Assembly: GCA_019058275.1 (NCBI GenBank)
Contig: JAHLVW010000045.1
Location: 32,001 to 96,000, forward strand
Origin: Candidatus Heimdallarchaeota archaeon
GTDB taxonomy: Archaea; Asgardarchaeota; Heimdallarchaeia; JABLTI01
Direction: 5' to 3'
DNA: 64,000 nucleotides
Both the position numbers and the translations under genes were made by a program. The notes beneath the pieces were generated by a model that saw only the letters and a list, made by a program, of their open reading frames with translations, was not told where the DNA came from and did no database searches. This document shows, piece after piece, positions 14,580-14,630 of this stretch; position 1 is the stretch's first letter; each line of letters opens with the position of its first letter.

Positions 14580-14630
14580 ATGTTTACCTTGAAAATTCAT
14601 CTAGATATCACTTGGCGTGATTGGTTTTAA
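14580..14630 (+). CDS. Putative trpS leader peptide MFTLKIHLDITWRDWF (uORF with two Trp codons)
   Basis: ATG 14580, TGG at 14613-14615 and 14622-14624, TAA 14628-14630; AAGGTT SD-like element just upstream; 85 nt before the trpS start. Confidence 0.6.
   Translation: MFTLKIHLDITWRDWF

Follow-up and report, generated by a model that had tools for sequence, protein, structure and literature searches.

Leader-peptide control in known systems and the locus examined

Leader-peptide attenuation is a textbook bacterial mechanism. We examined a candidate for such control in an archaeon, in a stretch of 64,000 nucleotides (nt) from Candidatus Heimdallarchaeota archaeon (Asgardarchaeota; GenBank assembly GCA_019058275.1, contig JAHLVW010000045.1, positions 32,001 to 96,000 of the forward strand), the whole of which is called the window here. 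The element in question is a short upstream open reading frame (uORF) with two tryptophan (Trp) codons, located before trpS2, a gene for a tryptophan--tRNA ligase (TrpRS). Comparative sequence analysis indicates that the uORF and the RNA around it probably form a ribosome-read Trp sensor, that is, a leader-peptide attenuator acting mainly on translation initiation.

The arrangement resembles trpL and the other trp, his, phe, leu, thr and ilv attenuators of Escherichia coli in that a short open reading frame (ORF) with clustered cognate codons precedes genes of the same amino acid. As in trpL, the ORF overlaps the first of the mutually exclusive helices, and a terminal hairpin is followed by a U tract. 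Unlike trpL, the archaeal leader has three competing segments instead of four, and its output helix holds the Shine-Dalgarno (SD) sequence of the next ORF, so that control is probably translational. In addition, its targets are an auxiliary TrpRS and the TrpB-like enzyme TrpB2 rather than the trp operon, and the polarity predicted from its geometry is inverted. It shows no sequence or Rfam similarity to the E. coli attenuators. In Bacillus subtilis, the leader rtpLP of the anti-TRAP rtpA operon has about 10 codons, three of them for Trp, and the position of the ribosome controls translation initiation of the next gene. The archaeal leader shares with rtpLP the Trp codons and, as proposed, the setting of downstream initiation by ribosome position. 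However, the terminating ribosome on rtpLP blocks the adjacent SD directly, whereas here the SD lies about 50 nt away and would be reached through a relay of anti-SD and anti-anti-SD segments. The antibiotic-sensing arrest peptides of ermC, cat and cmlA likewise combine a leader peptide with alternative helices that hide or expose an SD, the ribosome being the sensor; ermC has four segments, one layer more than the archaeal leader, and stalling there opens the SD.

T-box riboswitches are the usual control of trpS in Firmicutes, where alternative helices respond to tRNA-Trp status, as is proposed here for the Trp genes. However, the archaeal leader has no Stem I, specifier loop or T-box sequence and is too small, at about 130 nt. 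A T-box-like reading of the two UGG codons was ruled out by their spacing and by their loop position, which occurs in one subfamily only. TnaC-type leaders are characterized by W12, D16, a C-terminal Pro before the stop codon and a Rho-dependent read-out; the uORF examined here has W12, but no D16 and no terminal Pro, and it ends in W-F-stop after 16 residues. The trpRS1 gene of Streptomyces coelicolor has reportedly been studied experimentally. Classical attenuators have been predicted before trpS (trpS2) and leuS in Streptomyces (PMC1262725). Streptomyces trpS2/trpRS1 and the archaeal locus have in common a Trp-codon leader on an auxiliary TrpRS gene and a housekeeping copy without leader, but the Streptomyces attenuators are bacterial, terminator-based and induced by depletion of charged tRNA-Trp, and there is no sequence relationship. 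In archaea, ribosome profiling has revealed small ORFs (sORFs) in 5' untranslated regions, with no amino-acid-sensing leader reported (PMC11456600). The Asgard Trp leader appears to be a variant of bacterial leader-peptide attenuation, of which no published archaeal case was found in the literature searched.

A conserved Trp-codon uORF upstream of trpS2

The leader ORF occupies positions 14580-14630 of the window (+ strand) and consists of an ATG, 15 further sense codons and a TAA stop codon (14628-14630), encoding the peptide MFTLKIHLDITWRDWF. A first-pass annotation, made from the letters of the window, had described this ORF as a Trp-codon leader; its letters, codon count and two TGG codons were confirmed, as was its location 85 nt upstream of trpS, measured on the same strand from the uORF stop codon to the trpS2 ATG (14716). 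The downstream ORF is a tryptophan--tRNA ligase by TIGR00233. A single ORF of this kind is unremarkable by itself, since 24 of 2157 upstream regions (1.1%) in the window's genome, a metagenome-assembled genome of 4.1 Mb that is 93% complete, contain an ATG-initiated sORF of 8-30 codons with at least two Trp codons. Those of the other sORFs that were examined lay inside coding sequence and were artefacts of the crude gene caller. The density of two Trp codons in 16 compares with a genome Trp frequency of 1.09%, and the uORF is raised above chance because it is conserved and tied to Trp genes.

The leader precedes the trpS2 orthologs of all eight genus genomes, and also those of 10 out of 10 metagenome contigs (proteins 67-80% identical), which were fetched by protein alone, without reference to the leader; over the set as a whole, protein identity ranges from 67% to 94%. 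The ATG, frame and stop codon of the uORF are kept at all 18 trpS2 loci; thus, the conservation that the first-pass annotation had looked to in relatives was found, with Trp codons, before every ortholog found in the genus. Seventeen of the 18 uORFs are 16 codons long and encode Trp at positions 12 and 15. These loci yield 14 distinct uORF sequences, 13 of which have 16 codons with M1, W12, R13, W15, F16 and TAA; the exception (genome G006) has TAA at codon 15 and retains W12. All three positions vary in codons 2-6, 9-11 and 14, and the amino-acid sequence of the uORF therefore does not appear to be under selection. In-frame stops occur in one of the 14 distinct sequences, compared with 2.95 expected from column shuffles (P = 0.018), and the other two frames of the same stretch are interrupted by stops, one in all 14 sequences and the other in 10 of them. 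Together, the open frame, the unconstrained peptide and the fixed regulatory codons look like attenuator leader peptides.

An A/T-rich TATA-like box is located 32-45 nt 5' of the uORF ATG in 19 of 19 related leaders; in the window, such an element had been noticed at first pass. Its position predicts a transcript 5' end near 14568-14572, approximately at the 5' strand of helix P1 and about 10 nt before the uORF. The SD-like element that had been assigned to the uORF is present as AGGT in AAGGTTGC, but the match is weak and AGGT is absent from the copies upstream of TrpB2 described below.

Mutually exclusive helices and the SD of trpS2

Four helices, P1 to P4, were obtained with RNAalifold from the genus alignment (Table 1). 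In 19 leaders, 93.1% of the cells are paired, compared with 30-48% when the partners are slid, and 11 of 23 pairs are changed on both sides, a count reached in none of 500 shuffles. An independent MAFFT alignment gave 94.9% paired, compared with 31-49% when slid. The stem of P4 occurs as UCAC/GUGA, CGC/GCG, CCAC/GUGG and GCCA/UGGC.

Directly 3' of the uORF stop codon lies an anti-SD segment, CCUC(C)UAGAUGA (region 2), which is contested by region 1 inside the uORF and by the SD GGAGG in region 3. The duplex formed by region 1 has energies of -6.8 to -12.5 kcal/mol in every leader with a gene, and the lower stem of region 2 with region 3 has 91% of its cells paired, compared with 45-64% when slid. 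Both pairings of region 2 are kept in all leaders with a gene. In the window, the minimum-energy fold of the leader is the SD-sequestering hairpin (-34.3 kcal/mol, z = -2.9), the loop of which contains the 3' strands of P2 (GGT, 14649-14651) and P1 (GCAGCT, 14659-14664). The two folds are close in energy, within a few kcal/mol, in many leaders when the RNA is unmasked; for the window and genome G004, constraints derived from the alignment do not give reliable state energies, because the register of the helix between regions 2 and 3 differs by one base there. The U tract after the hairpin ranges from T2 to T6 across relatives and is not uniformly terminator-like, and translational control is therefore favored over termination. 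A helix between the start-codon region and the Trp-codon region, present in the window only, was dropped after inspection by eye, as it is not kept in relatives. An Rfam search over 14300-14900 at E ≤ 10, T-box included, returned only sub-threshold chance matches.

The SD itself, GGAGG, is found in every leader with a gene except on one contig (GAAGG). All 16 relatives have, 6-8 nt downstream of GGAGG, a codon in the TrpRS2 frame: mostly ATT, but ATG in two lineages and GTG in a further one. Three of the sequences offer no other start and have no canonical one in frame. Thus, GGAGG is the ribosome-binding site of trpS2, with ATT, ATG or GTG the likely start in relatives. The window strain has a single inserted G at 14718. 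Contigs matching the stretch confirmed its DNA, and those of two runs (depths 118 and 13) contain this G, which a sister strain lacks. The insertion shifts the ATT frame relative to trpS2 and gives rise to the ATG at 14716.

Table 1. Features of the trpS2 leader and its surroundings, in window coordinates
Feature	Position	Strand	Evidence or remark
TATA-like box, A/T-rich, TTTTTTTATAGA	14537-14548	+	32-43 nt 5' of the uORF ATG
Helix P1 (5' strand GGTTGC)	14570-14575 with 14659-14664	+	5' strand overlaps the weak SD-like AGGT; 93.8% of cells paired; 3 of 6 pairs changed on both sides
Helix P2 (3' strand GGT)	14586-14588 with 14649-14651	+	RNAalifold
Helix P3 (5' strand is region 1)	14597-14605 with 14635-14643	+	96.1% of cells paired; 3 pairs changed on both sides
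Region 1, TCATCTAGA, anti-anti-SD	14597-14605	+	uORF codons 6-9; 5' strand of P3; pairs with 14635-14643
Hairpin P4, TCAC-TTGGC-GTGA	14608-14620	+	First UGG in loop; 97.3% of cells paired; 3 of 4 pairs changed on both sides
Trp codon 12 (TGG)	14613-14615	+	Sequence; present in 18 of 18 trpS-type leaders
Trp codon 15 (TGG), followed by TTY TAA	14622-14624	+	In 17 of 18 trpS-type leaders; TAA in G006
Region 2, CCTCTAGATGA, anti-SD (CCTC) and 3' strand of P3	14633-14643	+	Partner is region 1 or region 3
SD-hairpin upper stem, GATGTTAGG with TTTAACATT	14642-14650 with 14668-14676	+	Minimum-energy fold of the window leader
Region 3, TTTGGAGG, holding SD GGAGG (14681-14685)	14678-14685	+	Pairs with region 2
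T6 tract	14686-14691	+	Directly after the hairpin; spacer between SD and start, possibly a termination signal
ATT-initiated 10-codon frame, ITKELIIDGI*	14694-14726	+	8 nt after GGAGG
trpS2, tryptophan--tRNA ligase	14716-15804	+	362 amino acids, no Trp residue; profile matches

Diverged copies of the leader

With a covariance model based on the leaders of the eight genomes, a diverged copy was detected in four genomes (45.5-60.9 bits). In two of them, G006 and G009, the copy precedes the gene for TrpB2, a TrpB-like pyridoxal phosphate enzyme (NF009057, 719 bits against a cut-off of 366), and these are the only TrpB2 carriers among the 11 genus genomes. The uORF of the G006 copy, MLTKLYPLGATFWWHWF, has 17 codons with three for Trp, and that of the G009 copy, MLNFSCNLGAKCWQWFFFTS, has 20 codons with two for Trp and ends in FFFTS. 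Cognate-codon uORFs before other amino-acid genes, for which the first-pass annotation had suggested looking, are represented by this sister leader. The length difference between the trpS-type and TrpB2-type uORFs preserves the frame. The TGG codons lie in the loop of P4 before trpS and in its stem before TrpB2; the persistence of UGG while its structural place changes argues for a codon function rather than a structural motif.

The G006 copy is also informative on the two pairings of region 2. A G-to-A change makes this segment CCUCCUAAA instead of CCUCCUAGA, and both region 1 (UUAGG) and region 3 (UUUAGGAGG) are altered to match it. Of all the observations, this double compensation speaks most strongly for what appears to be a two-partner switch. 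Gene content downstream of TrpB2 is not conserved and was of no help in inferring polarity. Between the leader GGAGG and TrpB2 lies an ORF of about 46-61 codons (locus L087, 1631-1814, in G006; matching stretch of L088 in G009), which begins immediately 3' of the SD and whose end coincides with or overlaps the TrpB2 start. This intervening ORF may be a relay for translational coupling to TrpB2.

The other two copies are orphans and occur in the window's genome (G000:C61:229385-229521, - strand; locus L086, 1501-1637) and in its nearest relative, G004. The uORF of the former, MFNLTIHLESTFWWYWFY, contains three Trp codons, and the copy leads directly into a convergent pepT gene from that gene's 3' side. 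In both orphans, GGAGG has become GAAGA, and the uORF with three Trp codons and P3 are retained. Between the two, P3 is maintained by changes on both strands. The orphan leaders hint at a possible stand-alone role as a small RNA or peptide. A relic is present in genome G010 (locus L083, G010:C17:143314-143446), where about 26 codons of trpS2 are left and both TGG codons are lost (TGA, TGT). Compared with G001, this relic carries more than 10 substitutions, all of them in the uORF half, and its 3' half is identical.

trpS2 encodes an auxiliary, Trp-free TrpRS

The trpS2 product matched TIGR00233 with 215.8 bits (cut-off, 176.75) and PF00579 with an E value of 7.6e-37. It contains KMSKS, and its HIGH motif reads HIGS. 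The target gene thus encodes a TrpRS, as had been annotated at first pass, but it is not the sole or housekeeping trpS. The window's genome has a second TrpRS gene on contig C30, for TrpRS1, a protein of 397 amino acids that is 34% identical to TrpRS2 and scores 517.8 bits against 478 for the curated TrpRS equivalog. The TrpRS1 type is present in 40 of 41 sampled class genomes, and the TrpRS2 type is patchy (16 of 41); trpS2 is the auxiliary paralog and TrpRS1 the housekeeping copy. The region upstream of the TrpRS1 gene contains no Trp-containing sORF and no such leader.

All 13 aligned TrpRS2 orthologs (48-100% identical) lack Trp residues, of which TrpRS1 has six; the Trp-free share among ORFs of 300-450 amino acids in the genome is 7%. 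Most of the wider TrpRS2 clade (Heimdall, Bathyarchaeia and DPANN) is Trp free, and because this includes lineages without the leader, the lack of Trp is not tied to leader regulation. TrpRS relatives of the Loki type have 3-4 Trp residues and no Trp-containing sORF upstream. IGPS, TrpA, TrpB and TrpB2 were looked for in the window's 93%-complete genome and were not found, which suggests that the organism is probably a Trp auxotroph. Among 83 class genomes, chorismate-binding enzymes occur only in genomes of family f4 and in one f6 genome. Trp leaders directly upstream of chorismate-binding (trpE-like) genes in the f4 genomes, which were sought so that polarity could be inferred from a biosynthetic operon, were not found.

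Proposed mechanism and its polarity

The ribosome-read Trp leader is well supported in silico, and from it we infer that the uORF is translated, that the outcome depends on Trp-tRNA and that the response has the polarity discussed here. The transcript would start about 10 nt 5' of the uORF, which would lie inside the four-helix fold. With region 2 on region 1 (P3), the downstream GGAGG would be free; with region 2 on GGAGG, in the long hairpin followed by the U tract, the ribosome-binding site of trpS2 would be closed. The choice of partner would be set by the position of the ribosome on the uORF. A ribosome stalled at the Trp codons would cover region 1, free the anti-SD and close the SD, and a ribosome at the stop codon would cover the anti-SD and leave the SD open. 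In the sister genomes, this device would control TrpB2, its uORF there having two to three Trp codons.

To model these states, the nucleotides under the ribosome were masked using standard footprint sizes, and the leader was refolded. With W12 in the A site, region 1 was covered and the pairing probability of GGAGG was 1.0 in six of eight leaders; with the ribosome at the stop codon, the anti-SD was covered and GGAGG was freer. No fourth segment complementary to region 3 was seen downstream in the sequence, and the helix between regions 2 and 3 therefore cannot act as an anti-terminator. Provided that the switch is real, the modeled states lean toward a coupling in which downstream translation depends on completion of the uORF and falls on stalling. 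The complete model, an attenuator of inverted logic whose anti-SD is released onto the SD by stalling and is removed only by a ribosome that completes the uORF, is put forward tentatively, as one that could well prove wrong. We know of no described cognate-codon leader with such inverted polarity. If it is true, the synthesis of Trp-free TrpRS2 (mostly AUU initiated) and of TrpB2 would be gated by the ability to read Trp codons, and a small ribosome-run Trp regulon would exist in an archaeon.

The first-pass annotation had proposed that TrpRS expression is feedback-controlled by ribosome stalling when Trp-tRNA is scarce. Of this proposal, the ribosome-read leader is supported in silico, but the geometry predicts lower expression on stalling. 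Its designation as attenuation agrees with the mutually exclusive helices, but the output looks like SD sequestration and not clearly like transcription termination. The suggested bridge to eukaryotic uORF control is rhetoric, and nothing in the analysis bears on it.

Several results weigh against the stall-closed leader or against a translated uORF in general. The polarity inferred from geometry is the reverse of that of every known cognate-codon leader, and an SD closed by stalling fits poorly with a Trp-free enzyme and with the Trp-making TrpB2. The uORF alignment shows no third-position periodicity, and H7, L8, W12, R13 and W15 are at paired or invariant RNA positions, so that RNA constraints alone could explain them. 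The pair counts of P1-P4 are inflated because alignments A3-A5 were fitted to the P1-P4 model, and the SD helix offers little covariation, GGAGG and CCUCC being almost invariant. In addition, searches of 83 Heimdallarchaeia genomes with models R1 and R2, and a laxer search, placed the RNA family in one genus only, and among the runs on record as RNA, none is listed as containing the locus. Because of the conflict with the precedents and with the physiology of Trp-free TrpRS2 and TrpB2, the structural polarity is favored only mildly; the classical polarity comes next, and an arrest peptide or another mechanism takes up the rest.

Alternative explanations

The same switch could operate with classical polarity, so that stalling at scarce charged tRNA-Trp raises trpS2 and TrpB2 expression; we regard this as a live alternative, although a rather doubtful one. 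Two routes are conceivable. Ribosomes that pause on the final Trp codon or on the stop codon may open the base of the SD hairpin, or reduced ribosome traffic on the uORF may preserve P1-P4. Only 11 nt separate the last Trp codon from CCUCC, a distance that corresponds to the edge of a stalled ribosome. The known cognate-codon leaders (trpL, pheM and the Streptomyces trpS attenuators; PMC1262725) all turn on in starvation. The absence of Trp from TrpRS2 (13 of 13 orthologs, against 7% of ORFs of similar size) would suit an enzyme made when Trp is short, but this absence is clade-wide and includes leaderless lineages. TrpB2 makes Trp, and the genome is without IGPS, TrpA and TrpB, so that scavenging would matter. 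In contrast, an A site occupied by W12 (W13/W14 for the TrpB2 leaders) leaves region 1 covered and the anti-SD free, and folding then closes the SD, and the fourth segment complementary to region 3 is missing downstream.

An RNA-only regulator, such as a riboswitch, a protein-binding operator or a tRNA-binding element, with the ORF incidental or a passive read-out, is unlikely. Such a regulator would account for the strong covariation of the four-helix junction, for the invariant loops (UUGGC and UGGUUYUAA), for the hiding of the uORF's own start region by P1 and for the lack of visible amino-acid-level constraint in the uORF; two folds within a few kcal/mol, as in many of the leaders, are also seen in riboswitch platforms. 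It would not account for the retention of ATG, frame and stop codon at 18 of 18 loci, for the change in length between subfamilies that preserves the frame, or for the avoidance of stops in the uORF frame only. The number of UGG codons rises to three before TrpB2 and their structural position shifts; since number and position vary between subfamilies, they do not form a fixed specifier loop. The two UGG codons are only 6 nt apart, probably too close for the anticodon and 3' end of one tRNA, and no Rfam family, the T-box included, matched at the threshold given above.

A ribosome-read Trp leader could also work as TnaC does, through an arrest peptide responsive to free Trp or indole, with W-x-x-W-F holding the ribosome at the stop codon and opening the SD. 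We consider this very improbable. The W-F-stop ending is kept in most leaders, Trp stands at position 12 as in TnaC, and geometry and masked folding indicate that only a ribosome positioned at the stop codon covers CCUC(C). However, 16 residues barely fill the exit tunnel, there is no terminal Pro, and the residues apart from W, R and F are free to vary. The G006 peptide ends at codon 14 and the TrpB2 leader peptide of G009 in FFFTS, and it makes little sense for Trp to induce a Trp-making enzyme. Finally, a functionless chance ORF in A/T-rich intergenic DNA can be dismissed. Sixteen open codons are common at 33% G+C and 1.1% of upstream regions hold a two-Trp sORF, but this one is kept in 18 of 18 loci and in the paralogous TrpB2 leaders, lies in RNA that covaries and decays only where the gene is gone.

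Significance, neighboring sequence and other lineages

Transcription and translation are coupled in archaea, whose ribosomes and initiation factors stand closer to the eukaryotic ones. If the proposed leader is real, it would therefore extend the known range of attenuation control to an amino-acid sensor that is read by ribosomes in Asgard archaea. The leader would define a small Trp regulon, consisting of TrpRS2 and TrpB2, in apparent Trp auxotrophs. With a length of about 130 nt, it would be a compact and mutable test object for archaeal translation dynamics, and its three-segment relay poses a concrete question of polarity.

Directly upstream of the leader is an ORF of 261 amino acids (13710-14495, + strand) with no Pfam or NCBIfam match. 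The C/D-box snoRNA model RF00493 matched inside this ORF (14334-14394) with 25 bits against a threshold of 60, probably by chance.

Outside the genus, Trp-containing sORFs were found before trpS orthologs in 9 of 26 lineage representatives (Heimdall, Bathyarchaeia and DPANN), compared with 3.7 expected from shuffles (P ~ 0.007). This excess is not counted as support because a recurrent motif, CCAATGG, contains its own ATG and makes the Trp frame ambiguous in those lineages. The motif carries an ATG that opens a frame of 42-49 codons in eight of eight Hodarchaeales (loci L040-L047), and this frame, as judged by eye, terminates at the predicted start of trpS or adjacent to it. The Hodarchaeales have, about 180 nt upstream of trpS, a conserved leader that can be read in two frames; its short-frame option, M(x)YQWQLSLVExHQH, contains one Trp. 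In two other Heimdall loci, L049 and L051, short uORFs ending in Leu-Asp-Trp-stop (MSDTLDW and MKLILLDW) are located about 110-170 nt before trpS. Within 5 nt of their stop codons come a G+C-rich hairpin and a U-rich stretch, and the arrangement may represent a simpler, two-element Trp leader.

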